64,000 nt of DNA. It comes from Candidatus Latescibacterota bacterium. GTDB lineage: Bacteria > Latescibacterota > UBA2968 > UBA8231. The notes under the pieces are model-generated. The model was not told the origin of the DNA and searched no databases. It saw only the letters and a list, made by a program, of their open reading frames with translations. Position 1 is the stretch's first letter, and every line of letters begins with the position of its first letter. This document shows, piece by piece, positions 34,122-55,262 of this stretch. Position numbers and translations under genes: made by a program. The stretch is from contig CBDCXV010000011.1 in assembly GCA_965223905.1 (NCBI GenBank), positions 1,152,001-1,216,000 of the forward strand, in the 5' to 3' direction.

Positions 34122-34191
34122 TGTCGGTGTCCACCGACTGACTGCCCATCCGTTCACCGATTATGGTAGTATTTCTTTGCGCCGCTGTCAA
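34122..34191 (-). promoter_or_regulatory. Sigma70-type promoter with downstream palindromic operator
   Basis: Minus-strand TTGACA (34191-34186), 17-bp spacer, TACCAT (34168-34163); TGTCGGTGTCCACCGACT at 34122-34139. Confidence 0.7.
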
Positions 34192-34437
34192 TCCCCTCCG
34201 TATTCGCGCCGTTGCGCTCGACGCGTGTTGCGGCCAAGTCGTGGGAGCAGTGGCGGGCACGGTTTCCCGTCTTCAATCCTTCTTGCCGGCGAATCAGGCC
34301 GATCCTACCAGCTAAAGGATAGGCGCAACGTATTACACCTACCCCTTTGGTCGGCACCTACCGGCTACGCCAGTGGTTCAAAACAATCTGAATTGCCTCA
34401 AGCGTTAGCTCCAATACCACGGCCAACCATCTTGGCA

Positions 34438-34806
34438 TCATGATTTACCACCCCCTTTCTGTGGTGTGTCGTCGTCCCCGTTCTTTTTGAACCTCCCACG
34501 GTTGTCTCGATCCCGAGACCTTGCTGCTTCGCTCCTCTCGCGGTTCTGTTCTTCCTGTCGCCGAGCTTCTTCTGGGTTAACCCCGTTTTGGATATCCGAC
34601 CCGGTTTCCGTTTTCCCAAACTCCCGCTTCACCACATTCAACCGCTCTTTCACCTTCCCCTTGATCCACTCGGAATGAGCTTTGTTGACAGCAAGATGGA
34701 AGAGGCGGACCCCCACCTCCCTGGCAACGACCACGGCGACAGCCGTTACTACTGGCTTCCAGGGTATGCCACTGTCCTTCTTTCCGTTCCTGCGTAATGG
34801 TTCCAT
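34438..34806 (-). CDS. Hypothetical membrane-anchored protein
   Basis: RBS, one hydrophobic segment, RDNRGRFKK motif. Confidence 0.55.
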   Translation of the reverse strand: MEPLRRNGKKDSGIPWKPVVTAVAVVVAREVGVRLFHLAVNKAHSEWIKGKVKERLNVVKREFGKTETGSDIQNGVNPEEARRQEEQNRERSEAARSRDRDNRGRFKKNGDDDTPQKGGGKS

Positions 34807-34817
34807 GATGTTCCTTT

Positions 34818-35027
34818 CTACAGGTCTTTTGGCCTGCCGGTTTGTTTGCCCCCTATCTTTTCCGACAGAAGGTCGATGAGTTCCCGCACTCTATGTGTGG
34901 GAATTAACACTTCGTAGGTCCCGCCGTCGCTGCGGGAGCCTTGTATCGAGACACCAGGAGCATTGATCCAGGCGAGGAATTCGCACTTCTCAATGTCCCG
35001 TATCTGGATACAGCGATGTTCGTTCAT
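34818..35027 (-). CDS. Hypothetical protein
   Basis: GAGGTG RBS, co-directional with neighbours. Confidence 0.5.
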   Translation of the reverse strand: MNEHRCIQIRDIEKCEFLAWINAPGVSIQGSRSDGGTYEVLIPTHRVRELIDLLSEKIGGKQTGRPKDL

Positions 35028-35164
35028 ACGCAGTTCACCTCTTTGTTAGGAGATAGAAGATGGATACACGACTACCAGCCGATTTCAGAGACGAAATCGC
35101 CAAGAAACAGAGAAAGGAAATTCAGAGACTACGGAAGGAGAAGGAACAGCTACGGGAAGAGCAC

Positions 35165-35210
35165 AAAAAAGCCCCCGGATCGTCAGATACCGGGGGCGTG
35201 GTTTTTTTTC
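35165..35210. terminator. Bidirectional rho-independent terminator
   Basis: AAAAAA-GCCCCCGG...CCGGGGGC-...TTTTTTTT. Confidence 0.7.
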
Positions 35211-35228
35211 TCTGGTGGGGAGGGTGAG

Positions 35229-35528
35229 TTAGGGATCGGAGTCGGAACCGTTTCCAGCTGCCTCGATTCTCTTGACCGCATTCTCGATTCTATGGATGGG
35301 CTTGACGGCATTCTCAACTCTCTTAAGTCTATCGAGGACAGACTTAATCTCTGAATGTCTTTCAAGCGTGATCCGTATTGTAGCCTCGAATAAATCTATA
35401 TGAGCATTAGCTTTTGAGATAGTCATATCGTGCGCGGAATAAAGCTGAACCAAGTTTCCTCTGATATGGTCTATATGCTTTAAAGTTTTAACTTCGAGAG
35501 GTTCTTCTTTTCTTCTTTCGTCTACCAT
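35229..35528 (-). CDS. Hypothetical coiled-coil protein
   Basis: RBS; internal R(V/I)ENAVK duplication. Confidence 0.55.
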   Translation of the reverse strand: MVDERRKEEPLEVKTLKHIDHIRGNLVQLYSAHDMTISKANAHIDLFEATIRITLERHSEIKSVLDRLKRVENAVKPIHRIENAVKRIEAAGNGSDSDP

Positions 35529-35541
35529 CGTTTCCCTTTCT

Positions 35542-35964
35542 CTATGCCTTTTCGGGTATCTGTGGCGGATTGTCGTCTGAATCGTCGGGTTTGATCTTCG
35601 GCTTGTCGTCTTTGTCTCCGAATAGCTCCTCCATCTTTTCGTCGGCTTGTATTCTGTGGATAAGCTTTATGCTTGCGGCAATGGTAAAGATTGCCCCGGC
35701 CAGCACTGCAAGATCGTCCTGGAAGCCTATGACGGGGAGGTAGTCGGGAATTAAGTCGAGGGGATTTATGAAATACGCGAGAGCCGCGAGCACCACTGCC
35801 TTAGCCTTGGCGGGTGTGTCTGGATCGGATAACACGTAATACAGGACAAGGGCTTTCGAGAGTAGATCCTTGGCGATTTTCTTAGCCAGCTTAGCAACGG
35901 CTTCGATCTTATCCCAAAAGGTTTCTTCCGAGTAGTTGGGATGTTCCATGACTAATCCCTCCAT
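35542..35964 (-). CDS. YkvA/DUF1232 family protein
   Basis: YSEETFWDK, ALAYFINPLDLIPDYLPVIGFQDD. Confidence 0.9.
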   Translation of the reverse strand: MEGLVMEHPNYSEETFWDKIEAVAKLAKKIAKDLLSKALVLYYVLSDPDTPAKAKAVVLAALAYFINPLDLIPDYLPVIGFQDDLAVLAGAIFTIAASIKLIHRIQADEKMEELFGDKDDKPKIKPDDSDDNPPQIPEKA

Positions 35965-36056
35965 CCTTTTTTTGCACCGCTCTTCTTGTCAGCTTCGTAT
36001 CCTATTTTGTTTCCCGTCAGCCCACCAATAGCACCTACCAAGATGCCAAGAGGAAC

Positions 36057-37631
36057 GGGTGTCTTAGCTGATTGTTACGGTTTCGGTGGTTGTTTTTAGG
36101 TTTTCTCGGTACTGCTGAAAGACCCGGTCAAGCGTTCCATTGTACAAGGCGCAGCGCAGGGCCAGAATGGCGTTGCTGTTTTCCTTATACCACCAAGCGC
36201 CCGACCGTTTCAGACGAACGTGGCCGATGAAGCGATGCGCCGATTCGATCGCCCCCGACCCGATCGGGTATCCGCCCTTGCGATGGCTGCCGAAATCGAC
36301 CTGGTGCAGTCGCTTTTGCAGGTAGGTCAAGGCCGTGCCGATGGCCTCTCCGGCCTCTTCCGAGAGCGGCTGCATGCGCTGCAGACCCCAGACCACGCCG
36401 CTGCCCTCGCCGCAGAACAGGCGCGCCAGGGTCGCTTCCAGCCAATGGGCAGCACGCGCCGCATCGGCGCCGTATTGGGCCTCGGCCACCGCGTGCAGGT
36501 AGCTGCTGCAATGGTAGTAGTCGAGGATCTGACGGGCGCTCGGGAACAGCTCTTCCACCCACTTCCAGATCCACGGAGCGCCATCTCCGATGGCACACAA
36601 GCGCACCTGATCCTCCGGGATCAGCCCCGCCTCCTTGACCTGGCGCAAGGCCGCGCCGAAGGCCTGTTCGTTGCCCATCTGGTGCCAGGAGATCAGCTGC
36701 TCGATGCGCTCATCGTCTATCAGGTAGAAGCGAAAGCCCTTGGCTTCGTGGTATTCCCCCTGCCAACGCCTTCGCCGAGCCCGGCTCTTCTTGCGTCCGG
36801 GACGGGTGCCTTTGGCGGTCTGGGGACGACTGGGCACGTCGGCCGCGTCGATGGCCAACACCACGATCGGCCGCCACTTGCGACCGGCGGCGGCTTGCGC
36901 AATGCGATCCTGGATATCGGCCGCGTCCGGACACACCTGCAGCACGTCCAACGACCCGGTCTGTTGCAGCACCTCGTGAATCACACAATCGCTCATCGAC
37001 GCGTCGGTGAGCTCGTCCAACAGTTCGGCGGCGCGCCGGTGGGGCATCTCCAGCCCCAGCTTGACCCCGGCCTGCTGCACGTCCCACTGCTTGCGCTGCG
37101 CCGACAGGCCCAGGGCCTCGTCCAGCGGATAGAACCCGTGGTGACAGCCAACGCAGTAGAAATAGGGACGCTCCAAGGTCACCGGCCCGAGCAGCGTCTC
37201 CACCGTGCGCGAGCGAGACGGGCGCGCTCGCAGCAGGCCTTTGCACTTGGGGCAGGCCGCCTCTTCCTGGGCCAGGAAATGGCCGTGGCGGCGTTCGACG
37301 AAGGCTTCCACCAAGGCCGCGGTGAGCCCGGAGCGCTCTTGAGACATCGCCGCGGTGATCTCCATCAACGTCGGCGCACAAGATCCGCGCTCGCTCATTT
37401 GCGTCTCCACCCGATCCAGCCATTGGTCCAAGGCTTCATGCGCCCGGCTTCGAAAGCGGTCCTGACTCTGCCGCTCCTGAAAAACTTCCAGAGAGAGAAT
37501 CGCACTCATCGCTCCCCTTCTTTCTGAAATCAGGGGAGCGCGCCGCAGGGGATGCGGAAAAAGAAAGCAACTTACTGTAAAATATACACATACGCACCTG
37601 AATTGCGCTATAACAATTACTTAAGACGCCC
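36057..37631 (-). mobile_element. ISKra4-family IS (1,575 bp)
   Basis: Imperfect TIRs GGGTGTCTTAGCTGATTGTTA / GGGCGTCTTAAGTAATTGTTA; TSD AGAGGAAC at 36049-36056 and 37632-37639. Confidence 0.88.
36064..37509 (-). CDS. ISKra4-family transposase
   Basis: CPKC..TLLG...RPYFYC..C, AIDA, IGDGAPWI, LDYYH, PIGSGAIESA. Confidence 0.9.
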   Translation of the reverse strand: MSAILSLEVFQERQSQDRFRSRAHEALDQWLDRVETQMSERGSCAPTLMEITAAMSQERSGLTAALVEAFVERRHGHFLAQEEAACPKCKGLLRARPSRSRTVETLLGPVTLERPYFYCVGCHHGFYPLDEALGLSAQRKQWDVQQAGVKLGLEMPHRRAAELLDELTDASMSDCVIHEVLQQTGSLDVLQVCPDAADIQDRIAQAAAGRKWRPIVVLAIDAADVPSRPQTAKGTRPGRKKSRARRRRWQGEYHEAKGFRFYLIDDERIEQLISWHQMGNEQAFGAALRQVKEAGLIPEDQVRLCAIGDGAPWIWKWVEELFPSARQILDYYHCSSYLHAVAEAQYGADAARAAHWLEATLARLFCGEGSGVVWGLQRMQPLSEEAGEAIGTALTYLQKRLHQVDFGSHRKGGYPIGSGAIESAHRFIGHVRLKRSGAWWYKENSNAILALRCALYNGTLDRVFQQYRENLKTTTETVTIS

Positions 37632-37758
37632 AGAGGAACTGTCGCGGTTATTCCCCACCCTCCAGAAGCTAATCCTATAGCGGAGCCGATCTTAGCCCCC
37701 GCTACGGCTCCTGTCAGCAGTCCAGCTATGGTTCCGGCTGCTTCTTTTTTCCGTGGCA

Positions 37759-38802
37759 TTATTCCTGACCTCCTATGATAGCCTTGAGTTCTCCCCAGGA
37801 GGTCTGTTCGATGGAAGTGGGAATGTCGGGAGTATCGTATTCCCATAGTTTTATAAGACTGTCTGTTCCGGCACTGGCAAGGTATCGGGAAGACATAGCG
37901 AGGGCCGTTAGTTCGTTAAATAAATACCCCTCTCTCCCCTCGTGATGTTCCAGGGTTGCAGTAGGTTCCCAGGTGACGGTGCTGAGTATTTCGATTGCCC
38001 ACGATTCAGCTAACGAAACTGCAAGCAAATTGCTATCTGGAGAGAATGACATTTCTCCAACTGGCTTGTTGAAATACGAAGATATTCCCCAGGTATTAGT
38101 GTCCCACACTTTGAGCCTATTGTTGTTGGATATGCTGGCAAGTAACCGGCCATCGGGAGAAAATTCAAGATTAGTGACATCCCAATGGTCTGAGCCCAAC
38201 AGGGTGACGATTTTCTCTCCTGTTTCTGTATTCCATATGTATATAATGTCGTCTGTTGTCCCTGTTGCCAGCATGTTTCCGCCAGGATGGAATGCCAAGA
38301 AAGAGAAATACGGACCGAATTGGTCTCGGGATATTTCCAGCTTAGTGTCGAAGGTTTCTGGATCTACAAGGTATACAATTATATCATTTCCGATTGCAAT
38401 GGTTTCCCCGTCTGAGGATAGCGAAATCAGCAGAAATTCTCTGTTGGCGGAATAGGTTTCTTCTTCAAGGTTGATAATTATTGACCTACCGGAACGCAGG
38501 AAATCCGCCCGACTGTCTCCTCCAAAATCGTTTCCGATACGCCCACTGTTTATTAAGAACTTGCCATCGCGTGAGAACGTCATATGACGCCCACCGGTAA
38601 GGTTGAGCGGTTCTATCTCTTCCTCTCCGGATTCGATATTCCAAATCCTGATTTTCCCACCCCCGGTGCTTGCCAGACGGTTTCCATCTGGCGAAAACGC
38701 CAGTGAGTTTGTTGCGTATAACGATGGAGTATCTGGAATAAGAAATTCTTTATCGGAGGCAGATACTGCGGCAGCCAGCAGACACAGCAGTAGAAACGTC
38801 AT
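37759..38802 (-). CDS. Secreted WD40-repeat protein with C-terminal WGxxK motif
   Basis: Signal peptide, FSPDG..LAS...I(R/K)(I/L/V)W repeats, ends PTSIEQTSWGELKA. Confidence 0.88.
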   Translation of the reverse strand: MTFLLLCLLAAAVSASDKEFLIPDTPSLYATNSLAFSPDGNRLASTGGGKIRIWNIESGEEEIEPLNLTGGRHMTFSRDGKFLINSGRIGNDFGGDSRADFLRSGRSIIINLEEETYSANREFLLISLSSDGETIAIGNDIIVYLVDPETFDTKLEISRDQFGPYFSFLAFHPGGNMLATGTTDDIIYIWNTETGEKIVTLLGSDHWDVTNLEFSPDGRLLASISNNNRLKVWDTNTWGISSYFNKPVGEMSFSPDSNLLAVSLAESWAIEILSTVTWEPTATLEHHEGREGYLFNELTALAMSSRYLASAGTDSLIKLWEYDTPDIPTSIEQTSWGELKAIIGGQE

Positions 38803-39396
38803 TTGTCGATCCTCTTGCCGCTATGTCAGAGAAAGAGAGCCGTAGCCGCTACGCCAGAGAGGCCATCCGTAACGTCGAGAAACCCAGCCTGGAGCTTTCG
38901 CTATCCGGAAACGGCGACTACGGGAACTGCGCGTGGGCGGCAGTAGGGAATCTCTCTCCCCGAGCAAGGTGAAAGTAATCCCCGGCTCCCATTGGAGCCG
39001 GGTCCTTGCAACCTTGCCACGCAGAGAGCGGGAAGTCCCACCTATTTACCAAGTCTCAGGGAGCTACCCCTCGACTGGAAAAAACTGGCTGTTTTATTCA
39101 GCGGGAGACCCGACAAGCAGGACTCCACGCAGCAAGATTGCGAAGGAGATAGTAAACCTTCATTGATAACGACACAAGGGGAAATCGGTTACGGGTATGA
39201 GCGGTGAAAGATTACACCGAGAAGTGCCAAATGAAGTGCCAAATTTGCACGGCGAAGACGACCTTTGACCGGCAGCCCGGGAAGTTGGCACGACTCTTTC
39301 CGAAGCCCGTGGTATTCTCCGAAGGAAAATTCTGAAGAAAGCGGCGAGCAGCGCGGAAGCGGAGCCGGAGGGACTTCGCCCCCCGGCCTGACGTGG

Positions 39397-40389
39397 TTAC
39401 TTCACCAGATTCCGATACAACAGCCGTTTCCCCACCATCCGGGCAACGACGTCTTCCATCTGCTCGATGGTGTCCTTGTCGCGGATGTTGTGCCTTCCGA
39501 CAAACTCGTCTACGTATCGCTGTAAGTGCTTGGGGGACATGGAGTGATAGGTTCCCTTGTATCCTCGCTTGATATTTGACCAGAAGCTTTCGATGCCGTT
39601 GGTGTGGGAACCATCGGTAGAGAACTGGCCTTTTGAGTGAATGACGAACTCGGATTTTCCCGGCCACTTGAAATCCTTCAAAGCACTTGCCCCGTCGCTG
39701 TAAAGGGTGCCGTTTACTCTCAGGTGCTTCCGGGCGAATGCTCTCAGAATGTCCGCAGTTTCCGCAGGAATTACGCTCGCTGCGACCTTGCCGGTTTTCC
39801 TGTCCTTCATACCGACGACGATGGTTTTTCCATCCATCCATCGTTCCCGCAGTTTCTTGTCGGCATGTTTGTTGGCCTCCTTTCCGCCTATATAGGCTTG
39901 GTCGATCTCGCCTCTCTTGCTTCTGAGCTTCTCTTGATCAGACCATGCCTCCCTGATGCGGTGCGCCATGAACCAGGCCGTTTTCTGCGTCACCCGGAGG
40001 TCCCGGTGTAGCTTCATGCTGGACACGCCTTTCAGGCTGGACAGGTGCAGGTAGATGGCAATTGCCCATTTTTGATACGAGATATGGGAGCATTCGAGCA
40101 CCGTTCCAGTGCGAACGGAGAACCGTTTGCGGCAGTCTCCGCACCAGTAAGCCTGCGGTTTGCGGTTCGGGCATTCGGAAATCATGCCGTAACATCCGCA
40201 ATGGGGGCAGTATATTTCCTTGGGCCATCGAACATCCTCGAACCACTGTTCCGCCGTTCTGTTGTCCGGGAACTTCTCGAACAGCTCGATCAGGGATACG
40301 CCTTTCCTGTCGTTCCTTCCCGGCCCTTCCGGTACAAGGCCTCTTCCGGCTTTCGACCAGCGGCCCAGGAATCGCTTCAATAGTTTCAT
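39397..40389 (-). CDS. IS1595-family transposase (internal paralog)
   Basis: CPHCG, YWCGDC, FSVRTGT, EIDQAYIGG, LYSDG, HTNGIESFW, HLQRYVDEF. Confidence 0.92.
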   Translation of the reverse strand: MKLLKRFLGRWSKAGRGLVPEGPGRNDRKGVSLIELFEKFPDNRTAEQWFEDVRWPKEIYCPHCGCYGMISECPNRKPQAYWCGDCRKRFSVRTGTVLECSHISYQKWAIAIYLHLSSLKGVSSMKLHRDLRVTQKTAWFMAHRIREAWSDQEKLRSKRGEIDQAYIGGKEANKHADKKLRERWMDGKTIVVGMKDRKTGKVAASVIPAETADILRAFARKHLRVNGTLYSDGASALKDFKWPGKSEFVIHSKGQFSTDGSHTNGIESFWSNIKRGYKGTYHSMSPKHLQRYVDEFVGRHNIRDKDTIEQMEDVVARMVGKRLLYRNLVK

Positions 40390-40890
40390 GAGTTCCTTTC
40401 TGGTGAGAATGGGGGGGAGCGGGTTGTCGGGATCGAGTCCCCCGCGCAGGTCGTTCCGAGACCCCTGGCAGGTTGACAAACGGCTGCAACGGGTGTCCCG
40501 CTCCCCTATAGGTCTTTGGAAACTGCCGGATCTCCGCTCAGGTGATTGTGAACGGGAATGATCGAACAGGTTCCCTAATGACGGCGGACTTGAAGACTTC
40601 CCGAGGATGCACCAGGGAGGCCGTCTGGCTGCCTAATCGAGGTTATTTCGGGGGGGCGACTACCCGGTTCCGGGCACCGGGGTGGAGGACGACAAAAAAT
40701 CCCCTGTCGGCCATTCGAGACAGGCGGTTACGTCACCCGGGGTCACAAACGGTTACGGCCCGAATGCCCAGGTCAAACCGAAATCCTGAAATTGTCGGTG
40801 TTCACCGACAGTAGAAACAGGGTAGCGGTCAGCAGACCCGGGAAGGAATGACGCCTCCCCGGGCTCCCCTCTGAAGGGCACCGCCCTGTC

Positions 40891-41679
40891 CTACTTGCCC
40901 GATCCTGCCTCCGGGTTGTCGGTGTTTTCCCGGGATACAGGCGCTGCTGTCGTCCTTGCCTCGCCCGATCCCGGATCTTCGCTGTTTACCGAAAAGGCGC
41001 TGTGGGAGTATATCTGCTGCTGATCGACTGAAGTTGTTTCCTTGGGAGTCCCCTTTTCCTCAAGCTGGCGTTTGAGCTGCTTGTTTTCCTGGAGCAGCTC
41101 GGCGATCCTTTCCTCGGCAACGCGCAGTTCATCCTCGGTCTTGCGCAGTTCGGCAACTTCTTCCTCGGCTTTGCTCAGTTTTTTCCCGGTCTCGCGCAGC
41201 TTGTCGCGGAGCTGCTGAATCTCCTGCGGGGACTCGATTTCGACGGGAAGCGACGGAGTGCCTTCGCCGTCAGTGACTTCCTCCTGCTGCACGGATGAGG
41301 CTTTCCCTTCAGCCACATCGGGTTCGACCTCCCTGGCCGGCTCCTTGCGTTTCGAACGGGCAGGTTGCCAGGCCTTCAAAGCCTGATCCACCGAGTTAAA
41401 TTTCCCAATTTGGGATATTTCATCATACTGCTCTGAGAGCTTCATCCATCGATGGGCCGTGCTCGTGGGGATGCCGGCGGACTTCAGCCATTCCCCCCAC
41501 TTTCCATGCGGCAGCTCTTTTTTGACCTCGCACAACGCCCGGCCGCATTCCCAGACTTCCTTAATGGTGTTCCTGAAAAATCGATTGGCAGATTTCCAAT
41601 GCTCGATTGCCCGACTCTGAGCATCGCTCAGGTCGGAGTTTTCTGCTTTCGTCTCCATTTTTCCCGATTCCTGTTCCAT
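40891..41679 (-). CDS. DUF3102-domain protein with coiled coil
   Basis: GRALCEVKKELPHGKWGEWL...TAHRWMKL. Confidence 0.8.
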   Translation of the reverse strand: MEQESGKMETKAENSDLSDAQSRAIEHWKSANRFFRNTIKEVWECGRALCEVKKELPHGKWGEWLKSAGIPTSTAHRWMKLSEQYDEISQIGKFNSVDQALKAWQPARSKRKEPAREVEPDVAEGKASSVQQEEVTDGEGTPSLPVEIESPQEIQQLRDKLRETGKKLSKAEEEVAELRKTEDELRVAEERIAELLQENKQLKRQLEEKGTPKETTSVDQQQIYSHSAFSVNSEDPGSGEARTTAAPVSRENTDNPEAGSGK

Positions 41680-42586
41680 TGATATTCAACCTTTATTTGA
41701 GTGGAATCCTGTTCAGAGTTGCATACCTTGTGTGCCGGATGCCGCATTGCCGGGACGCAAATGCCCATAAGGTATTGTTTTAATAATTAGTTACTTCATT
41801 TCCTCATCGATTCGTTATTCGTCTTTCGGTGTCCTCCTTCCTCCTGCATATGAGTTCTCGCGGTACCCTGATTCCATCAGGTAATTCTTGGGGATCTCCC
41901 CGTAAGCCCTTCTTCCACAAGCATATAGCGCCTGCTTCCATCGTCCAAGCCTGAATATGGCTGGGTTGGATGTCCATGTCAAATCGGGCTGCTGAGGGAG
42001 TGGGCAGGTGGGAACTCGGGAATTCCTGCCCCCCTCTCAACTTCCTGTTCAGAGTAACCTGTGTGCGGAAATGGCTGATTTTCGTGATACGAAGGCTGTA
42101 AGGCGCTATTTTACAACAGGTTATCCGTTTTTCGTCTCTTCGCCTCGTGTCTCCCTTCCTGGCCCGACTTCCACGCCAAATCGGCTTCTGAACGGTCGTG
42201 TTTCACGGGCAAAGGCGCTGCTTTCGTCCTTCCACCTGCCCGATTCTCGATTTCCGCCGTTCAGGGCACTTGCGTCGTACACGACCCGACTTTCCTGGCC
42301 CCGAGCAGCCGAGGCGACACTGCACGGGTGAGCCGGCACTCGACGCCCCGGCGTCGGCATTTTCGTACGGGATCGATCCGACCTGGTTTTTCGGCAAGGG
42401 TCACGCGATACTGCATGGCTGAACCGGGCCACGACCCTTCCGGTGTCCTGGCTGATACTCGGGAGCCGATCACCGATCCACCGAGGGCAAGAGGTTGTTG
42501 ACTTGTGGCAGGAGGGGAGGTTAACTTTCAGAAAAGATGCCCAATTGGGCACTATCGTCGGCGGTCACCGACCGGAGTGGAATCAA

Positions 42587-43027
42587 TCAGACAATCCCGA
42601 GCTCCTTCATGGACACGCTTCCGCCAGGAGGGGCAACGATTACATGATCCATAACGTCGATTCCTACGAGATGCCCCGCATCGCGCAAGCGGTGCGTCAG
42701 ACTGATATCCTCTTTCGACGGCGCAGGATCGCCGGAGGGGTGATTGTGGGCCAGCACGATGCCATCGGCACCCTTGAGAATCGCGGCCTTGAACACTTCC
42801 CGAGGGTGCACGAGGGACGCAGTCTGACTGCCGATGGAGGTGATTTCGTGGGCGATGACGCGGTTCCGGGTGTCGAGGTGGAGGACAACGAAAACCTCCC
42901 TGTCCGAATTCCGGAAATCATCCAAGCTGTCCAGGTAAGTAATAACGTCGCCGGGGCCGACAAGGGCCTCGCTGCACACGTCTTGCCATATCTGCTTCAC
43001 GGTTCGTTCTACGACTTCGAGTTTCAT
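42587..43027 (-). CDS. RadC-like JAB-domain protein (JAB domain only)
   Basis: REVF..LHLD, VHPREVFK, AHNHPSGDPAPSKED, MDHVIV. Confidence 0.93.
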   Translation of the reverse strand: MKLEVVERTVKQIWQDVCSEALVGPGDVITYLDSLDDFRNSDREVFVVLHLDTRNRVIAHEITSIGSQTASLVHPREVFKAAILKGADGIVLAHNHPSGDPAPSKEDISLTHRLRDAGHLVGIDVMDHVIVAPPGGSVSMKELGIV

Positions 43028-43059
43028 ACGAGGGTCCTTTCTTGAAAGGAAAGAGGAAA

Positions 43060-43677: not shown

Positions 43678-43739
43678 GTGGAAAGTTATTGAAGACGACG
43701 CCCCCAGCACCGGGGAGTAGCAACCAGGAGCGCCGCCCA

Positions 43740-43997
43740 CTATACAGAGCCTTGTAGATCCTCGCATATCTCGCACAGTATCCGCTTCGCGGTCGCTTTC
43801 GCGTCCTGGTAGGAGATGCAAGAATCGTTGTGATAGAACAGAAGCGTAATCAGAAATTGATTAGGCGATATTTCATATGCACCCTTGGGGCCAGGGGCAA
43901 GCTCTACCTCAATTACCGCCCTGGTCGTGCACTTCCCAATCGGGATTGATGGGATTTCGGTTGTTCGACCGACGAAGACATTGGTTACTTTTGCCAT
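43740..43997 (-). CDS. Hypothetical protein
   Basis: AAAGGA RBS before MAKVTNVF. Confidence 0.5.
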   Translation of the reverse strand: MAKVTNVFVGRTTEIPSIPIGKCTTRAVIEVELAPGPKGAYEISPNQFLITLLFYHNDSCISYQDAKATAKRILCEICEDLQGSV

Positions 43998-44170
43998 GTT
44001 CCTTTCTTCCGGAGAATGCTCAAATGGAGTTTCTTTTTTGGGAACTATGTCAGGAATTTCACCCAAACAGGCTGGCAGGGGAGGAGATTCCCGCAGGTGT
44101 CATCAAGCTGGCGGAGGAAAAGTTTCAGGAGATTCAAAGTGCTTACGCAGCCGTTGGTGACATCCCGGCG

Positions 44171-44903: not shown

Positions 44904-44940
44904 TGGGTTCCTTTCTGGAAAAGAGAGGAGGAACAGTCAA

Positions 44941-45354: not shown

Positions 45355-45380
45355 TTGTCTAACCTTTAAGGAGAAGTGCT

Positions 45381-46773: not shown

Positions 46774-46971
46774 TCAGCTGGTCTTCTCCTACTTGCTATT
46801 TTCCCCATATTGATTCTGGTTTTTAACTCGCCAATAATGCGACCATTTTCTCGTATAGAGAAAGTCGTCTCTTAGCTTCTTCCCAGTCCATTGCTCCTAA
46901 GTCCATCGAGGATGTGCGGTCTCTGTAATCGTAGTCAAGTAAGTAAGTTGGCATAACAAGGAGGATCTCCT

Positions 46972-47178
46972 ATGGGTACTGTTCAGTTCGAAATCTTCAA
47001 AGGCGAAGATGGTAAGTACTGGTGGCGTCTGGTAGTTATTACCAGAGGTATCTATGCTCCTGCAAAGGATATCATCGCCACGTCCCACCAGGGCTTCGAT
47101 AGTCGCACCGCGTGCAAACGAGAAATAGAGAAAGTGATACAGGCGATATCTGATGGTCCTGATATTATAGAATCATAA
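46972..47178 (+). CDS. YegP/DUF1508 family protein
   Basis: FEIFKGEDGKYWWRL...IIATSHQGF..R..C...I. Confidence 0.8.
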   Translation: MGTVQFEIFKGEDGKYWWRLVVITRGIYAPAKDIIATSHQGFDSRTACKREIEKVIQAISDGPDIIES

Positions 47179-47208
47179 GAGTAGAAGTCAAATACGAGAG
47201 GATAATTA

Positions 47209-47805
47209 ATGACTAGCGAATACGTTGCAGAACTACGACTATCGGCTTGTCGATATTTAAGCATCCTTGAAGGTTTATTTGGGTCTCGTGATCCGAGATT
47301 TATTTTCGGAACAATCCGCAAGGCACTCAAGTCATCATTCGGTGATCGCCCGCGAATACATTTTCCGTGTAACTACTTTTTAACAGGTAGATGTATTGTC
47401 GATATAAATGTCACTGAACATCCTTGGGAACACTGTTGCATAGATCAAGGCAAATGGCAAGTTGCGCATGAATGTGTCCATCTTATTGACCCCGGAAAAG
47501 AGGGATCAGCAAATGTTCTGGAAGAGGGTCTGGCATCCTGGTTTCAAAATAATCAGGAATTCCATGATGACGCAGTTAATCGATACATCCATCGTAATCT
47601 TCAAGACCCTGAGAAGGATTATGAAACTGCAAGGCTGTTAGTTGTTCCTATCGCAACTGACATCACTCAGGCAGTGAAAGACATTAGAAGATCGGGAATG
47701 AGAATTCGAGACATAAAGCCGGATATTCTTGGCTCCTTTTTACCAAATATCGAAAAAGATACAATTAACGGCTTGTGCACCAAATGGCCTGATTTCATTT
47801 CCTGA
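47209..47805 (+). CDS. HExxH zinc-metallopeptidase-like protein
   Basis: QVAHECVHL followed by NVLEEGLA. Confidence 0.7.
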   Translation: MTSEYVAELRLSACRYLSILEGLFGSRDPRFIFGTIRKALKSSFGDRPRIHFPCNYFLTGRCIVDINVTEHPWEHCCIDQGKWQVAHECVHLIDPGKEGSANVLEEGLASWFQNNQEFHDDAVNRYIHRNLQDPEKDYETARLLVVPIATDITQAVKDIRRSGMRIRDIKPDILGSFLPNIEKDTINGLCTKWPDFIS

Positions 47806-47987
47806 GATACTGGGTCAGCGAAACTACCCCTTTTCTGGTATAATCCTTTTTTGAACACACCATACTACAGGGATCCGAATACCGGACCGTACACTTCGGA
47901 GGTAATCCGATTAAGGCTTTCTTTGCCTTCTGAGGATCGGTGAATCTGTTCGAATGGAACTATGAGACATCTGAAAGGAACAAGAGG

Positions 47988-48270
47988 ATGAACTTCTGGA
48001 TAGTAGGAGCGACATGGGAGGGTGTAGATATGGTTCCTGAGTTTGTAGAAAAGGGGATCTGAAAACTCGGGTGGGATTCTGCTGCAGAAGGCCCTAATAC
48101 CAGGGAATACTACGACTACGCTCCACAGATGCGTCCAGGTGATCGAATTGCGATAAAAAAGCCTTCTTTTAGGAGTAGGCCAAGGTAATATGCAGATTCG
48201 TCATATTGGAATCATCCAGCAACCATTTATCTGGAAGGATGACATAATCAACCTTAATTGTTTCTTATGG
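47988..48270 (+). pseudogene. Decayed gene resembling the N-terminal domain of McrB-like restriction proteins
   Basis: MNFWIVGATWEGVDMVPEFVEKGI*KLGW...QMRPGDRIAIKK with an in-frame TGA. Confidence 0.5.
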
Positions 48271-48297
48271 ATTAAAGCCTTATTGAGTAGGCGAGCG

Positions 48298-49002
48298 ATG
48301 GAAGTCCCCAAGGTATTTCTATGGATCGTAGTAGTATTGGCCTTTGCGTTGTATGGATGTCTGCCGCTTCCAGTGATCGAAACCACTTACCTCGAATCCC
48401 CACCCTCCTAATCGACACCTTCCAAACCCGAGGTAGAAGTTGATTCCGAAACTGGCCTTGTCGTAAGCGTTAGGGAGTCCGGAGGTTGGAAGGTGAAAAC
48501 CCGCCGAGACCCGCTTACCGGCGCGGTTAAATATTGGGAGTTGTCGTCTCCTGAGTTTCTCCCTGCCGAAATCATATTTGACGACTTTGGAGGGGACTAC
48601 AGGGACTTCACTTGGTACGAGGGATACATCACTATTTCCTGTACTCCTCCGAGTGCTGAAGTTAAAAACGATGGGCGACGTGTGTCTTTCAGTGCTTACC
48701 AGTCGGGACAAAGGTTTGGCAAATTCGCTTTTTCGGCTTTCAGGCCGATTGAATTTGCCTTGGGAACCGATAAAGGAACAGCCGATGGACCTGGCAACAT
48801 TCTTTTTAAATCACCGGATAACTCTTGGATCAACCCAGATCGGTTGCTGTCCGTAATGGTTGAAACCAAAACATCGGCAAAATGGAGCGCCAAGATGGGG
48901 TACCGTATGCGTCTGACGAACCAGGATCTTGTCCAGGTCCGCAAGTTCAAGAACAGCTATTGCTCGTCTTCCGATAGCCAGTTGACACCTGATGCCCCGT
49001 AG
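48298..49002 (+). pseudogene. Lipoprotein gene with an in-frame stop
   Basis: Lipobox ALYGC; TAA at 48409-48411; same frame continues as ORF 48493-49002. Confidence 0.55.
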
Positions 49003-49413
49003 GTAAGTTGTATATAAAGCGAACAAGTCCTATTCCCAGAACATATCGCAGCCAGTGTTTCTTGAGACGGCTTCGATTTCTTTCGTTCTTTCCATTAGAT
49101 AGTGGCAGAGGGAACCGAAAGGCGGGTCTTGACGAATCGGCAAAATGCCAGGAGTTCTCTTTCCGGCTCAAGGGACTACGCTCGTGGGGCATAGTTCAAC
49201 AGACGGACAAGAGGCTTCAGCCAATTGCCTGCCAATCTACTCGATCCCCCCTGCCAAAAACTGTCCGTCATCGTCGGATGTTCTCTTTTCCTCTTCGGGG
49301 TCTTCCTTCTCGCTGCACGGGATGCATATGTGCTCGTCGGGGGTGGGCATATAGAACAGGTGATATGGCCTGATTTCCTGGCCGCATACGCAGCAGACCG
49401 TCTTGAAAACCAT

Positions 49414-49863
49414 TTACTGCCTCGTGTCCCGGATTCTGCCCTCCTCGTCCACGAAGATCCGGAATGGCGAGGCCACCATTCTACGACAGGACTTGGTAAG
49501 GGCATGCACGCACTCGATGCAGATATCGAACTTCCTCCAATCCGTCATGCTGGCCGTTCCGACCTTGAGCTGCCCCCGCAAGTCGTCTTCGGAGGCGACC
49601 CCGTTGCAGATATCACAGATTGTGGTTCCCATTTTCGTTCTCCTTTCTCGGTGGATTTGATGCTTTGTAGGACAGGCGTAAGCCATTTTCCTGGTGATGG
49701 ATGATCGCCCCATGAGGCAGAGATACCTTTCCGGCATCGTTCGCTTCCCCTTCTCCCACAGGCACACTTCGGCTTCACTGACACCAAGGGCGATGCCCAG
49801 CTCCCACTGCTTCATGCCCAAGGCGTCTCTCGCCCTTTTCAGCTGATCTTGCGTCATCTTCAT
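49414..49863 (-). pseudogene. XRE HTH regulator, frameshifted into the downstream CxxC ORF
   Basis: Identical to the 51813 protein until LMG, then a one-base deletion (ATGGGGCGATC vs ATGGGGGCGATC). Confidence 0.75.
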
Positions 49864-49885
49864 TCTCCATTTCGAGGGGGTGATT

Positions 49886-49976
49886 TGTCGGTGGTCACCG
49901 ACAGAAGGACACAGAACGGCCCTGAACCGGCCTGACGGGGCCGGGTGTTGACAGGTATTCGGGTTCCCGTTAGAAT
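49886..49976 (+). promoter_or_regulatory. Palindromic operator plus consensus sigma70 promoter
   Basis: TGTCGGTGGTCACCGACA 49886-49903; TTGACA 49948-49953, 17-bp spacer, TAGAAT 49971-49976. Confidence 0.75.
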
Positions 49977-50081
49977 CGAAAACTGAGGTTCGAACGGTAG
50001 CGGATTCAGCGAGCGGGTCGCGGGAACTGCCTCTGCTTCACTTCATTGCAATGAGCATGGACCCGAGGGAGCGGAAGACCC

Positions 50082-50426
50082 TTGAGATGGCCTTTTCGCC
50101 GACGGCTCCACAAATGGATCGACGAAAGAAACCTTCGGGATGATCCAGACAAAGAGACATTGATTGGCATTTCAATGTCTATTCGCGAGAACCGTCGTGG
50201 AGAGCATGAAGACCCTGTACATGTGACCTTTTATTTTGCAACTCCAGGGTCTTACGATGGCGTCAAGAAAGCTATAAGTGAGAGCGGCGATCCTATCCCG
50301 GTGAGGGACGTAGATATTCAAATGAACCTGTCTGAATTCTTCTCTCTCTTCAAGAGATTCCAGGTAAAAATCTCTACCCGTGGAATTCTTGAAGGACGCG
50401 AAATATCCCTTGCCGAACTCGGGTAG
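50082..50426 (+). CDS. Hypothetical protein (possibly 5'-truncated)
   Basis: Open frame downstream of the module A promoter. Confidence 0.45.
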   Translation: MRWPFRRRLHKWIDERNLRDDPDKETLIGISMSIRENRRGEHEDPVHVTFYFATPGSYDGVKKAISESGDPIPVRDVDIQMNLSEFFSLFKRFQVKISTRGILEGREISLAELG

Positions 50427-50658
50427 CATATCGTCAAATCTCATTGAAGGGGTGCTCCGGTAGGTTCCGGATTGTATTCAGCCCTTTCCCTGGGCATTAG
50501 GCGCAATTCATCGGGATCTAATGAAGATCCAGGAGGATACTCCGGAAGCATCAAGACCCTGAATTGAAGGATCTGGACGAGTACGGCAAGGATCTTATCA
50601 GAAAGGGACTTCTACATCCAGAGGTAGAGAAGTATAATCTCAGAGGAGAACTTTTCCC

Positions 50659-50904
50659 CTATCCGTAGGGCCTGCCTTTTATACTACTCAGTTGCAGGGC
50701 TGCTCCGTTTTGCATGTTCACTGGGAGTGCAAGTAATCCCGTGTAATCCGAGGGACTTTTCCCCTCTATATACTGCCTGAACAAATCCGAAGACTGGGCA
50801 TCGAGTAAGCCGACTGACTGAGTAAGAGCATCTTCAAGTACGGCAATTCTACCATGAAGGAACTCGATATGATCCTTCAGTTGGTCTTGTTTGGGTTTCA
50901 TTTT
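50659..50904 (-). CDS. Hypothetical protein
   Basis: AAGGAG RBS before MKPKQDQL. Confidence 0.5.
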   Translation of the reverse strand, partial: KMKPKQDQLKDHIEFLHGRIAVLEDALTQSVGLLDAQSSDLFRQYIEGKSPSDYTGLLALPVNMQNGAALQLSSIKGRPYG

Positions 50905-51445
50905 GGGCTCCTTTTTAGTGATTTTTCGGGGCACGATACCTTCAAAACAGGCAGTTAGGGAGAACCACCTATGTCCAGCCCTCTTTCTGCTGGCCCGAGT
51001 TGTCCTTTGTGCAACGGGTACCTTTGTCCGCCAGAAGAAATTTCAGAAGAGTTGAAGAGGTTGAGCTTTGACCGAAACCTACCTGCTTCCGTGCGGGCTA
51101 CTCGCATTGTAAATATCGCCGCTCGGCATGGTGGAAGCTGGTGGTGTGCGGCAGTCCTGGGATATTCGACAGTGCTGAGGAGGCCAAAAGCGATGCACTG
51201 GAAAAACTGGCTGCTTTATCCTGCCAGATCGAACAACCAGTTGCGCACGCGCTTCATTGGGTACTGGAGAGCTTCGGGGAGCGGTGAGTGGCAGAGGGAA
51301 CCGAAAGGCGGGTCTTGACGAATCGGCAAAATGCAGGAGTGCTCTTTCCGGCTCAAGGGACTACGCTCGTGGGGCACAGTTCAACAGACGGACAAGAGAC
51401 TTCAGCCAATTGCCTGCCAACCTACTCGATTCCTCCTGCCACAAA

Positions 51446-51598
51446 CTATCCGTCATCGTCGGCAGTTCTCTTTTCTTTTTCGGGATCTTCCTTCTCGCTG
51501 CAGGGGATGCATATGTGCTCGCCGGGGGTGGGCATATAGAACAGGTGATATGGCCTGATTTCCTGACCGCATACACAGCAGACCGGCTTGAATACCAT
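51446..51598 (-). CDS. Small zinc-ribbon-like protein
   Basis: CCVC...CIPC; second copy starts at 49413. Confidence 0.5.
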   Translation of the reverse strand: MVFKPVCCVCGQEIRPYHLFYMPTPGEHICIPCSEKEDPEKEKRTADDDG

Positions 51599-51600
51599 TT

Positions 51601-51813
51601 TTACGACCCAGCTTTGTAGGACAGGCGTAAACCATTTTCCTGGTGATGGATGATCGCCCCCATGAGACAGAGATACCTTTCCGGCATCGTTCGCTTCCCC
51701 TTCTCCCACAGGCACACTTCGGCCTCACTGACTCCAAGGGCGATGCCCAGCTCCCACTGCTTCATGCCCAAGGCGTCTCTCGCCCTTTTCAGCTGGTCTT
51801 GCTTCATCTTCAT
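51601..51813 (-). CDS. XRE-family HTH regulator (intact copy)
   Basis: LKRARDALGMKQWELGIALGVSEAEVCLWEKGKR; GGAG RBS. Confidence 0.88.
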   Translation of the reverse strand: MKMKQDQLKRARDALGMKQWELGIALGVSEAEVCLWEKGKRTMPERYLCLMGAIIHHQENGLRLSYKAGS

Positions 51814-51834
51814 TCTCCATTATTCGGGGTTGTT

Positions 51835-51926
51835 TGTCGGTGACCACCGACAGAAGGACACAGAACCGGCCCTGAGACAGCCTGACGGGGCCGGGTGTTG
51901 ACAGGGTATTCGTGTTCCGGTAGGAT
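51835..51926 (+). promoter_or_regulatory. Palindromic operator plus sigma70 promoter
   Basis: TGTCGGTGACCACCGACA 51835-51852; TTGACA 51898-51903, 17-bp spacer, TAGGAT 51921-51926. Confidence 0.75.
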
Positions 51927-52257
51927 CAGGACTGGAGGGTGGAAATACCGTTGCAGAATTCAGCGAGCCGGTAAGGGCAACTGCGTTGACTCGCTAACTT
52001 GCCGTTTTCTGCAAGAAGGGTCGGTATGGACTCAGCGTGAGATTAGGGAAACGGAGAACGACAGAAGGAAAGCCGGGTCCCGGGTCGCCTCTGTCCGGAG
52101 GTGCTGGCGGAGTTGGATACCGTGATTCGGATGCAGTCTTTCGGATTCCTGAAGCGCGCCGAGCAGGTCCTGCAGTGAGGGAAATAAACGTCTTTCTCTA
52201 TTATGTTATACCAGATTTTCAGCGAAATCGCGCTTTTGAATCGGTATTCTACCGCTC

Positions 52258-52767
52258 ATGGACGCTATGATACAGAGCGCAGCTGGACTGCGGTCCGTTG
52301 GGGAGGAGCTGTGGCGTGAAGGCACATCTTCCGATCCCGGGACCGACAGGTTCTACGGTAGCCTGCAAGCTGCGCCCATTCTTCTGGCTCTTGGAATCGA
52401 GCTTGCATTGAAAGGATGGATCTACCGGGAGTCGAAGTGCGAACCCCCGTATATACACGACCTGCTCTGCTTATTCGAAAAGCTGGAACATGAAACCCAG
52501 GAACTGCTCGAAGATGCGTTTCAGCGTAACCGAGGCGCTGGAACTCCAGATGATCCGATTCACGAAATGGGAATACCGAAGAGTCGGCTAGAAGCACTGA
52601 CGGCAAGGGATCTTACTTGCCCGCGTCTGTCGTCTCTGAGAGAGGTTCTCGAAGAACACCGTAACCTGTTCGTAAACTATCGGTATCCGTACGAGAGAAC
52701 GCGCGAGCGCCCTTATCCTGGCGTTTTGAACAGAGTCCTGGTTGTGCTCATAGAGACCTACTGGTAG
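52258..52767 (+). CDS. HEPN-domain-like protein
   Basis: LALGIELALKG, HDLLCLFEKL, FVNYRYPYE. Confidence 0.7.
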   Translation: MDAMIQSAAGLRSVGEELWREGTSSDPGTDRFYGSLQAAPILLALGIELALKGWIYRESKCEPPYIHDLLCLFEKLEHETQELLEDAFQRNRGAGTPDDPIHEMGIPKSRLEALTARDLTCPRLSSLREVLEEHRNLFVNYRYPYERTRERPYPGVLNRVLVVLIETYW

Positions 52768-52949
52768 ACTTTATTTATTGACAGAGGGGGCAGACAATCG
52801 GAAGTGTCCAGGAATCTGGAGACTGTCACATAGATGCGTAGCTAGTACGAGCCACCTCTGACCGATCCGACCTAAAGCTGCGAATTGCTAACACGAAAGT
52901 CATCGCGGTCTTGCGATACTGACTTGGGCCTCATCCTATCCGGAAAGAT

Positions 52950-53150
52950 CGTGAATACTGACAGGAGTAAGGCCGTAATTGAAATTGCACCCCAGGTTGT
53001 CAGAATAGAAACTGCACATGGCTACCGCACTGGATTCATCTGTTACGCTGGTGAGCCTCTGCGTACTGTGGCAACGGCTTACCATGTCATAGACAATGCC
53101 GCAAACATCCCCTTATTTCCTGGCGAAGCAGTGAAAAAAACAAAACATCT
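52950..53150 (+). pseudogene. Trypsin-like serine protease N-terminal fragment
   Basis: VVRIET...TGFI...VATAYHVI, then truncated. Confidence 0.5.
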
Positions 53151-53174
53151 CGGTAATCGTGGGAATTTCCCAAA

Positions 53175-54751
53175 TTGTTGTTCGATGAGGAGGACATGAT
53201 GGAATTTGAACAGGAAATGTTTGATGAACTTGGAGCTTTATGTAGATCAAAGGGATTTATTCATGTAATTCCATACTTCTATTTTAGAGACCATGTAATT
53301 GCCTATAACGAAAATGGATTGACTCCAGAAAATCTGGGGAATCTATATTCTTGGTCACGAATCACCCGAGCAGAAATAAACCTATTAATAGGATTGATTT
53401 TGCGCGGCCCTATAGACTTCTCCTTGCCAAGTCCTCACAAACTATCGGAGTACCTGAAACGCAGCGAAGAGATTTTAGGCAGTATACATACTTATAGCAC
53501 TCGGCCTAATAGCACTCGGCAAAAAATGGATAATGACACTCGGCCAAGTGATCTAAGAGATATCGGAGATTCTATAGGGAAGGATTTGAAAGGTTCCGAT
53601 TGGATTCGTGAGGCATCGTTTTATGCTATAGGCATACGTATCGTAACGTCAAAATATATAGTCATCGTAATAGAAAAACAGAGTTAGGAGAAATTGATGT
53701 CCTGGTTGTCTTTGGGCATCTTGCGATTGTCCTTCAATGCAAGTCAAAAAGGCTTACGCTTAAGGCGCGAAGTGGGGACACCAAAGCCTTTCAGAAAGAT
53801 TTTGCGGGAGCAATAGGAGGTGCGGTCAATCAGGCATATTCATGTGCAGAATTGCTTTTCGACTCTTCTGTCGTTCTGGTAGATAATCAGGACACGGTAA
53901 TCGAAATAGATACACCGCTAACTACTGTCTATCCTTTGACTGCGGTTTCTGATCATTTTCCAGGGTTGGCATTTCAGGTATGGAATCATCTGGACTTCAA
54001 ACCCACTGACAAGACACCTGCTCCATTTGTCACAGACATATTTACCCTTGATATAATAACTGAATTCTTGGATTCTCCTCTCAAGATTCTGAGTTACCTT
54101 AGACTCCATGCCAGGTTTTATGACCGGATGCTTGCTGATCATGAGATCGTAGTATTGGGATATCACCTTGAGAATAACTTGTGGATTAATGAAAAATGGG
54201 ATAGTGTTTATTTTGAGCCAAGTTTTTGTAGCTGCATCGATATAGCAGTAGCGGCAAGAAAACACGGAATGCCAGGCCCCAAGACTCCTGAGGGGATTCT
54301 TACTTGGTTCGACGGAACAATATTCGAAGAGATAATTCCTGAAATAGAAGGCAATCCTACCCCGGAATTGATAGAATTTGGGCTTTTTCTGCTTCAGTTT
54401 GGAAAGGCAGGAATAGTCAATATTAATAACCAGGGGACTCGCATATTAGAGATCACAAGGAAAGACAAAAAGATACACGGGTTTTCTGTTCCTTTTGAAT
54501 CTGAATCGAAAGGATTGACGATTAACTGTGGTGTTTCTGATAAGGAATCGGCTGAATGGCTGTGGCAATTTTGCCTTGGTCGCAAATACGCCAGTCGTTT
54601 TGATTATTGGTTTGGTGTATCTCTTTATCCTGACGGGTCTCCACGCTTGGCCATTGCCCTGGATGACCCTTGGGAATATGATGAGAATATGGAAGAATTA
54701 ATTTCAGAAATGCCGACAGATGCCGTGTCTTTAATATCGGATACTAAATAA
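53175..54751 (+). pseudogene. Disrupted PD-(D/E)XK (NERD-like) nuclease-domain protein
   Basis: GEIDVLVVF...LQCKSKRLT...DF..AI..AVNQAYSC upstream of and in frame with ORF 53852-54751; frame break near 53640-53690. Confidence 0.6.
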
Positions 54752-55161
54752 AGACTTATGGTTCATTTACGATTCTCGGTTTTGTTCTCCCTTTTTGTAC
54801 AGTGATGGTAATTCCCTGACACTCCTCCCCTGCTCCGGGGTAGTTGTTCAGGCCGCGCAGCGTGGTCATGCCGTTCATGTTGCGGCCTGATGAGGTGGTT
54901 GCCCCAGGCGGTATCCTCCTCGGCGAAGCCCTTCCCACCACCGAGGAACAGCGCAACCAGGTCGTATCCCTCCAGCGATATCCTCGACCCGCAATTTCCT
55001 GAACCTCCCAGATACACCGGTCCTGACCGACCCCCCAGCGACAGCTTGCAGACCCAGGGGATCATACGGAGCCTCGTTCCCGCATCCGCTCCTCTCTCGC
55101 TTCCAGAAATTAAAGTTTTCTCCGTCACTACCGGATTCCTTCGACTAAAGTTTCCCCCGAT

Positions 55162-55262
55162 TTGCTTTTTTAGAAAATCCGGGTACACTAATGATAAATC
55201 GAAAAGGAATCCGTCAGGATCCGCTGCCGCTTCTCTGTCCCTTCTGTCGGTGCACGCCGACA
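55162..55262 (+). promoter_or_regulatory. Possible transposase promoter and palindromic operator
   Basis: TTGCTT, 16-bp spacer, TACACT (55162-55189); TGTCGGTGCACGCCGACA at 55245-55262. Confidence 0.55.

Follow-up and report, generated by a model that had tools for sequence, protein, structure and literature searches.

A short inverted repeat recurs in front of regulatory, transposase and cargo genes of a large transposon in a member of the uncultured phylum Latescibacterota, and we propose that it is the putative operator of a small protein encoded by the same element. The repeat is the 18-bp dyad TGTCGGTG-NN-CACCGACA (an 8-2-8 layout). We studied it in a stretch of 64,000 nucleotides (nt) from a Candidatus Latescibacterota bacterium (assembly GCA_965223905.1, contig CBDCXV010000011.1, positions 1,152,001 to 1,216,000), called the window here; positions without a contig label are those of the window. 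The protein, XRE, is a Cro-like helix-turn-helix (HTH) protein of 68 amino acids (aa). Our favoured reading, which we consider reasonably likely, is that XRE would regulate its own gene through the dyad and would control transposases and some cargo through further copies of it. The low-GC island that carries most of the window copies is a single IS1595-family cargo transposon, 30940-56810, of 25,871 bp.

The dyad and its distribution

Three exact copies of the dyad occur in the window (40793, 49886 and 51835), against 0.00 expected from 100 shuffles per pattern setting, and two more have one mismatch each (34122, with T as its last base, and 55245, with A12 changed to G). Allowing up to three mismatches brings the total to seven, against 0.26 expected; site 42556 (CGTCGGCGGTCACCGACC) and site 17167, the latter within a high-GC open reading frame (ORF), each have three mismatches and are not significant alone. 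A preliminary description, made from the letters of the window, had listed six intergenic copies, and all six match, 42556 being the weak one. It had also described arms that are kept around two variable central bases, which we confirm (TT, GT, AC, TC, CA and GT among the six sites), and a degenerate copy in front of a third xre gene, where the left arm is indeed perfect and the right arm matches at 4/8 positions (10179; Table 1).

The source genome (7.92 Mb in 11 contigs, 64% G+C) contains 3, 11, 25 and 188 sites at up to 0, 1, 2 and 3 mismatches; ten simulated genomes drawn from an order-3 Markov model had means of 0, 0.7, 4.8 and 62.8. With 11 found against 0.7 expected, sites with at most one mismatch are thus far above chance; about 0.6 three-mismatch sites are expected per 26 kb. 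Seven of the 11 are in low-GC mobile DNA (the five in the window, C2:485791 and C11:1962933) and four are within long ORFs of high-GC DNA (C1:934997, C1:1148202, C5:1869 and C10:10073). The preliminary remark that core intergenic DNA has no copy holds genome-wide: our scan of the whole genome found none there at up to one mismatch.

We extended the search, at the same stringency, to 76 genomes of the taxonomic family, 3 of this genus and 73 others. The two sister genomes of the same genus have 8 sites (G001) and 11 sites (G002), and the reversed pattern, used as the control for these counts, gave 0. The 73 other genomes have 54 sites, or 0.74 per genome. Of 16 that were inspected, 15 were within long ORFs of high-GC DNA and one (G013:C5, in a genome of another genus) was in a transposase leader; among the other 38, many are 18-mers identical across genomes of one genus, and these presumably represent orthologous core-gene positions. 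XRE itself was found in 3/76 genomes, all of the genus that bears the mobile-type sites. The motif is therefore confined to the mobile family, as had been suggested: the mobile-type sites and XRE occur in the same single genus, the G013 leader excepted. A phage origin was tried and rejected. A pattern scan of viral contigs gave 13 loci, none with xre or transposase homologues; all were inside long ORFs of high-GC phages, so we take them as chance matches.

Mobile-type sites were grouped by what stands next to them. In class X the site is 27-28 nt 5' of the ATG of the 68-aa XRE gene. In class T it is about 108-110 nt 5' of the ATG of a tnpC-type IS1595 transposase, in a well-conserved leader for which 7 copies from three genomes could be aligned. 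Class B involves radC: at locus L034 the radC ATG comes 14 nt after the site, at locus L022 the site is between radC and the transposase, and at 40793 it is ahead of a radC remnant and a transposase. Cargo sites precede the SIR2 operon in the source genome (51 nt before its first gene) and a GmrSD_C-like gene in G001. In local alignments the 100 nt upstream of the sites show no detectable similarity between classes, except for a block of about 19 nt (GCCGnTTCTnTGTCCCTTC) common to X and T; those of the SIR2-operon site share nothing with the other classes. A longer homology (about 90 nt) of the xre and tnpC leaders, which we considered, did not hold up, only the 19 nt or so beside the dyad being common.

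Promoter positions relative to the sites are consensus predictions. The predicted SIR2 promoter is just upstream of site 34122 and would thus place that site near the beginning of the transcript, at about +18 to +35. The xre2 site is overlapped by a weak -35/-10 pair, and the promoters of the transposase leaders, taken from the same kind of scan, are uncertain. Within the class T leader, the roughly 100 nt from the palindrome to the tnpC start (55270-55370 and six homologous leaders; GGGAGCGTGAATCACA...GGCCGCTGGTCTCAAGTTCGGTATTCCACGG) show higher conservation than the beginning of the coding sequence, and on the opposite strand of this block there is a consensus promoter, TTGAGA-16-AATATT (55338-55311). 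'Divergent ORFs' beside the tnpC-leader sites were discarded: when translated they resemble non-coding sequence, and they show no conservation at the protein level.

XRE as the candidate binder

The fold predicted for XRE is a four-helix HTH bundle (mean pLDDT 81.7). Its Foldseek neighbours are 434 Cro, the designed DNA binder 8tac, P22 c2, HigA2, C.Csp231I, C.AhdI, C.Esp1396I and Aca7, with a probability of about 0.97, TM scores of 0.44-0.56 and, for the top matches, E values above 0.05; no neighbour had an E of 0.001 or lower. A profile search of PDB sequences returned the same set of neighbours, weakly (DBP48 at E 0.006, 434 Cro at E 0.03). Matches to curated models fall below their cut-offs, both for Pfam HTH_31 (21 bits, cut-off 27) and for the MqsA/HipB-type HTH models of NCBIfam. 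Taken together, predicted structure, Foldseek and profile search bear out the earlier assignment of XRE to the HTH proteins, with a Cro/C2-like four-helix fold. The best neighbours of XRE, by structure as well as by sequence, bind operators as dimers (434 Cro, P22 c2, HigA2, C.Csp231I, C.AhdI and Aca7).

The family is narrow. A word-based protein search found 28 clusters, all at least 78% identical; genome contigs gave matches in a congener only (4 loci), and metagenome contigs a single weak, partial match. The best matches of the XRE profile outside the family are proteins of 300 to over 1000 aa with 4 to 12 tandem XRE-like HTH repeats that carry the same W-E-x-G signature; one of them (P0029, 1048 aa) has 12 stretches matched by the profile.

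The three genomes of the genus contain 18 xre copies (5 in the source genome, 7 in G001 and 6 in G002), with near-identical HTH residues throughout. In 11 of these a dyad with at most one mismatch stands 27-28 nt 5' of the ATG; it is degenerate in four copies and lacking in three. The preliminary description gave this distance as about 22 bp, which is right when counted to the first ATG; we count to the second, because homologues start there (MxQDQLK). Dyads with perfect arms are kept at xre genes that have no transposase nearby.

The xre modules vary in other respects. Relative to xre2, xre1 has a replacement of about 235 bp (49417-49661 against 51576-51604), so that the C-terminus of XRE is swapped for a CxxC...CxxC segment in a hybrid ORF of 149 aa; a fused form of this kind also exists elsewhere, as a 102-aa protein (P0025). 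The third copy, xre3, is in a second low-GC island (about 5000-12300) between DDE_5/DDE_Tnp_1 transposase genes at 6052-7023 and 10671-11859; with only a half-site on its 5' side, it is accompanied there by DUF2442 and DUF4160 genes.

In the mechanism that we propose, the element-encoded XRE would bind the dyad as a dimer, its half-sites TGTCGGTG being 10 bp apart centre to centre, or one helical turn. Binding in front of xre would give negative autoregulation; at xre2 the weak -35/-10 pair overlaps the site. As a diffusible protein, XRE may also bind the copies at transposase genes (the tnpC-type leader and the radC-tnpB operons) and at some cargo (the SIR2 operon here and the GmrSD-like gene in the sister genome), and at the SIR2 operon it could act as a roadblock just past the predicted start. 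A single pool of repressor would then serve every copy of the element in a cell, limiting transposition and coupling it to cargo expression. The data show the site with its statistics and positions, its restriction to this mobile family, the lack of covariation and the predicted XRE fold; we infer XRE as the binder, repression as the effect of binding, and the locations of the promoters.

A wider version of this scheme, which we consider less likely than not, is a shared 'immunity' circuit: one Cro-like repressor, supplied by several portable xre-operator-promoter cassettes, may act in trans on every copy, restraining two transposase lineages together with defence-type cargo (SIR2 and GmrSD-like). 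Loss or titration of the repressor, in a new cell or under stress, might then release a burst of transposition and cargo expression, like zygotic induction but for a DDE transposon.

Several observations weigh against XRE as the regulator at the dyad. Seven of the 18 xre copies have a degenerate dyad or none, with HTH residues essentially unchanged, so autoregulation through the dyad is not obligatory. Two sites with exact arms have a 3-nt spacer. The G013 genome has a one-mismatch dyad in its tnpC-type leader, and we found no XRE there, for which reason this site counts against the proposal; that genome is 84% complete, and the transposase beside the dyad has three in-frame stops. A pyrimidine-rich CCTTC recurs on one side of most sites, with TTCTGTG before it in classes X and T; this conserved, asymmetric 5' flank is not explained by a simple symmetric dimer. 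At the xre modules a strong divergent promoter is 44 nt from the dyad, a distance too great to be bridged by simple occlusion. Site counts are not independent events, since xre copies and tnpC leaders each form a duplicate family. Only a minority of the IS1595 transposase genes of the genus bear the site (roughly 4/22 matches in G001), and other IS1595 lineages of the source genome have unrelated palindromes 99-138 nt before the transposase start. Such lineage-specific leader palindromes include C2:413811 (a perfect 24-bp one), C2:418943, and C11:799489 with its copies; a palindrome at that distance may be a general leader feature of IS1595-type elements. The regulon that the preliminary description drew around XRE, transposases included, is accordingly retained in part: sites do precede xre (11/18), IS1595 transposases and the SIR2 operon, but most IS1595 transposases of the genus have no site.

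If XRE does bind the dyad, this would explain why the presence of dozens of related transposase genes in a single genome does not lead to runaway transposition, it would link mobility to the expression of defence-like cargo, and it would provide a defined repressor/operator pair from a phylum without genetic tools. If it does not, the dyad is still a sharply defined marker of the transposon family. No principle would be overturned by the putative circuit.

Alternative explanations

It might be objected that the palindrome works as a nucleic-acid hairpin, either a stem-loop at the 5' end of the RNA, with a stabilising or attenuating effect on transcripts, or a cruciform in the DNA, with no sequence-specific protein involved. 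The predicted position of the SIR2-operon site at about +18 to +35 of its transcript would suit this, as would that of the L034 site, 14 nt before the radC ATG and beside the ribosome-binding site; the two copies with a 3-nt spacer and the palindromes of unrelated sequence at similar positions in other IS1595 lineages can also be read in this way. We aligned 22 sites in a common orientation and found a compensatory change in 0/8 stem pairs. Most departures break the pairing (10 unpaired cells against 5 wobble cells), the mismatches of several copies being C·A on the coding strand, and the covariation score does not exceed that of shuffled alignments, 486/500 of which score at least as high. 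With respect to the coding strand, the T/C change at arm position 7 can be on one arm or the other, and unrelated flanks surround the same 16 arm bases. When the arms were required to be exact and the spacer was left free from 0 to 8 nt, 8/10 sites in the three genomes had 2 nt and 2/10 had 3 nt, none having 0, 1 or 4-8; a 2-nt loop cannot form, and one pair would need to open. No run of T follows the stem, so the site is not an intrinsic terminator, and an Rfam search over the island gave nothing relevant. What is conserved is the sequence and not the pairing, which points to a sequence-specific protein on double-stranded DNA. With arms that lack compensatory changes and a nearly fixed spacer, a DNA site fits better than a hairpin, as the preliminary description had argued from the short loop, and we regard the hairpin as improbable.

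A protein other than XRE could recognise the site, such as the IS1595 transposase with its Zn-ribbon N-terminus, another element protein or the product of an xre neighbour, in which case the xre modules would merely carry it. This would agree with the dyad in the conserved tnpC leader (in three genomes, with 7 copies, and in G013, for which we found no XRE), with the different palindromes at -99 to -138 from the transposase start in other IS1595 lineages, and with the 7/18 xre copies that have no intact site. However, the terminal repeats that the transposase must bind are unlike the dyad and contain no half-site, perfect-arm dyads stand at xre genes remote from any transposase, and Pfam detects no other DNA-binding domain among the 147 ORFs of the island. 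The DUF3102-like protein, named earlier as a possible binder, was found by Pfam search in the source genome only; a protein search added an intact homologue with 54-70% identity in G001 and broken, stop-containing fragments in G002. As G002 has 11 sites and no intact homologue, DUF3102 is excluded, though only as a universal binder. We consider a non-XRE binder rather unlikely overall. Still less credence goes to the idea that the sites are remnants without a present function that travelled with leader fragments as these were duplicated. In its favour, xre modules and tnpC leaders both form clear duplicate families, and the two classes share about 19 nt beside the dyad; yet the arms remain perfect or nearly so while the leader drifts to roughly 70-85% identity, similarity between classes is otherwise undetectable, and the site recurs before unrelated genes (the SIR2 operon, the GmrSD-like gene and radC). 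Finally, the preliminary description had allowed for a host SOS-like (LexA) box or a parS-type partition site, which have in common with the dyad only a palindromic form. We reject both as extremely improbable. In a check set beforehand, no site with up to three mismatches was found within 10 kb of either recA copy (C10:1781527-1782300 and C9:611408-612181) or of lexA (C2:306049-306240), core intergenic DNA lacks the site, no ParB-type domain is present among the 147 island ORFs, and the element is a transposon integrated in the chromosome with a target duplication, not a replicon. Both recA genes are full-length; the stated contamination of the source genome is 5.1%, and the doubled recA could reflect a second strain or a true duplicate.

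The transposon and its counterparts among known systems

The boundaries of the transposon are precise. Its tips are inverted repeats with 70/71 identical positions, the similarity extending over about 250 nt at 90%, and an 8-bp target duplication (AACGCCAC) flanks both ends. We found a paralogous empty site (C10:1298392-1299572) in which both flanks are contiguous and 98.5-99% identical, with the octamer present once. The insertion interrupts a gene for a large repeat protein (27514-30939 and 57036-63908, minus strand). Five other places in the source genome have the same terminus, among them a 4.6-kb sister element (C11:1961238-1965815) with a transposase and a copy of the palindrome. A subterminal word (TATTATACCAGATTTT and variants) is present about 60-85 nt inside all copies of the transposon end (here 30996-31026 and 56724-56750), and this word also occurs once internally (52193-52220); it could be a transposase-binding or promoter element.

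At the right end the IS1595 transposase is intact, whereas the left end has only a remnant. The two IS1595 transposases of the element are 55% identical to each other (Pfam 2e-30 and 1e-32; NCBIfam IS1595 163 and 156 bits, cut-off 75), and a nested ISKra4 transposase is at 36067-37509. The internal one probably starts at M31 of the long ORF 39400-40479, judging from locus L034, where the start abuts the radC stop. The cargo comprises the SIR2_2 operon, DUF1232, WD40, the DUF3102-like coiled-coil protein, RadC, two SWIB proteins and two xre modules. The SIR2 gene is matched by Pfam SIR2_2 (7e-11) and by PADLOC SIR2 (8e-18); ORF146 of its operon has no match in G001 or G002, and the SWIB genes have no homologous site beside them in the window.

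Table 1. Features of the window bearing on the dyad and its transposon
Feature	Position	Strand	Remarks
Half-site: left arm perfect, right arm 4/8	10179..10196		64 nt 5' of xre3 ATG, separate low-GC island
xre3	10261..10449	+	separate low-GC island
Target-site duplication, left copy AACGCCAC	30932..30939		also found after right end; once in paralogous empty site
Left terminal inverted repeat region (tip GGGAATTATATAGATAAC...)	30940..31192	+	first 71 nt 70/71 against reverse complement of right end; 253 nt at 90%
IS1595 transposase gene remnant	31242..31489	-	matches residues 238-320 of right-end transposase
Three-gene cargo operon: ORF74 (33850-34071), ORF146 (33413-33850), SIR2_2-domain protein (31972-33354)	31972..34071	-	
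Palindrome, 1 mismatch (TGTCGGTGTCCACCGACT)	34122..34139		51 nt 5' of ORF74 ATG
Predicted sigma-70-like promoter TTGACA-17-TACCAT	34163..34191	-	consensus match only, 10/12
Internal IS1595-family transposase, tnpB-type	39400..40389	-	Pfam DDE_Tnp_IS1595 1e-32
radC remnant (residues 60-127)	40512..40717	-	between palindrome and internal transposase
Palindrome, exact (TGTCGGTGTTCACCGACA)	40793..40810		5' of radC remnant and transposase; 81 nt past stop of DUF3102-like gene
Weak palindrome-like site, 3 mismatches	42556..42573		between radC stop and ORF143 start
xre1 (hybrid ORF): residues 1-52 of XRE, followed by a different CxxC-containing segment at the C-terminus	49417..49857	-	
Palindrome, exact	49886..49903		28 nt 5' of xre1 ATG
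Predicted divergent sigma-70-like promoter TTGACA-17-TAGAAT (11/12)	49948..49976	+	44 nt from palindrome, facing away from xre1
xre2: 68-aa Cro-like XRE helix-turn-helix protein	51604..51807	-	
Palindrome, exact	51835..51852		27 nt 5' of xre2 ATG
Predicted divergent sigma-70-like promoter TTGACA-17-TAGGAT	51898..51926	+	
Palindrome, 1 mismatch (TGTCGGTGCACGCCGACA)	55245..55262		108 nt 5' of terminal transposase ATG, in leader conserved across 7 copies (three genomes)
Terminal IS1595-family transposase, tnpC-type, Zn ribbon and DDE	55371..56378	+	NCBIfam IS1595 163 bits, cut-off 75
Right terminal inverted repeat region	56560..56810	-	
Target-site duplication, right copy AACGCCAC	56811..56818		

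Siguier, Gagnevin and Chandler are said to have described, in 2009, IS1595-family 'transporter IS' with passenger genes. The present element resembles these in its DDE_Tnp_IS1595 domain and Zn ribbon, its long terminal inverted repeats, its 8-bp target duplication and its passenger genes, which stand between the transposase and the far end. It differs in size, since 25.9 kb is far above the usual sizes of the family, and in having a nested ISKra4 transposase, a second IS1595 transposase and a repressor-type gene with a shared operator-like site.

Phage repressors of the Cro/CI type offer a different comparison. XRE is, like 434 Cro and P22 c2 (Foldseek probability 0.97, TM 0.44-0.47), a single-domain HTH protein of about 68 aa, and an operator-like dyad stands beside its own gene and a divergent promoter. 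In contrast to those systems, sequence similarity does not reach curated thresholds, XRE is carried by a DDE transposon and not by a phage, each xre has one operator-like site rather than a tripartite OR, and some sites are at transposase genes. The C proteins of restriction-modification systems and the Aca proteins of anti-CRISPR operons are likewise small XRE-fold autoregulators that are carried on mobile DNA and recognise inverted repeats at the operon to which they belong; unlike the situation there, no restriction-modification or anti-CRISPR genes adjoin xre, and copies of one site are found at several operons of the element and in many element copies.

Transposons also encode repressors of transposase expression, among them IS1 InsA, Tn3 TnpR and the Mu repressor. 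The logic proposed here would be the same, in that a diffusible, element-encoded DNA-binding protein would lower the transposase expression of all copies. Those proteins bind element ends, a res site or the Mu operators, whereas the site described here is internal, unrelated to the ends and found at cargo operons as well. Repressor-operator circuits are textbook knowledge for phages, integrative conjugative elements and a few classical transposons; our literature search found no description of one in IS1595-type cargo transposons, nor in any Latescibacterota mobile element. The putative XRE circuit would thus be of a known kind, and what is plausibly new is its setting, an IS1595 cargo transposon of an uncultured phylum.

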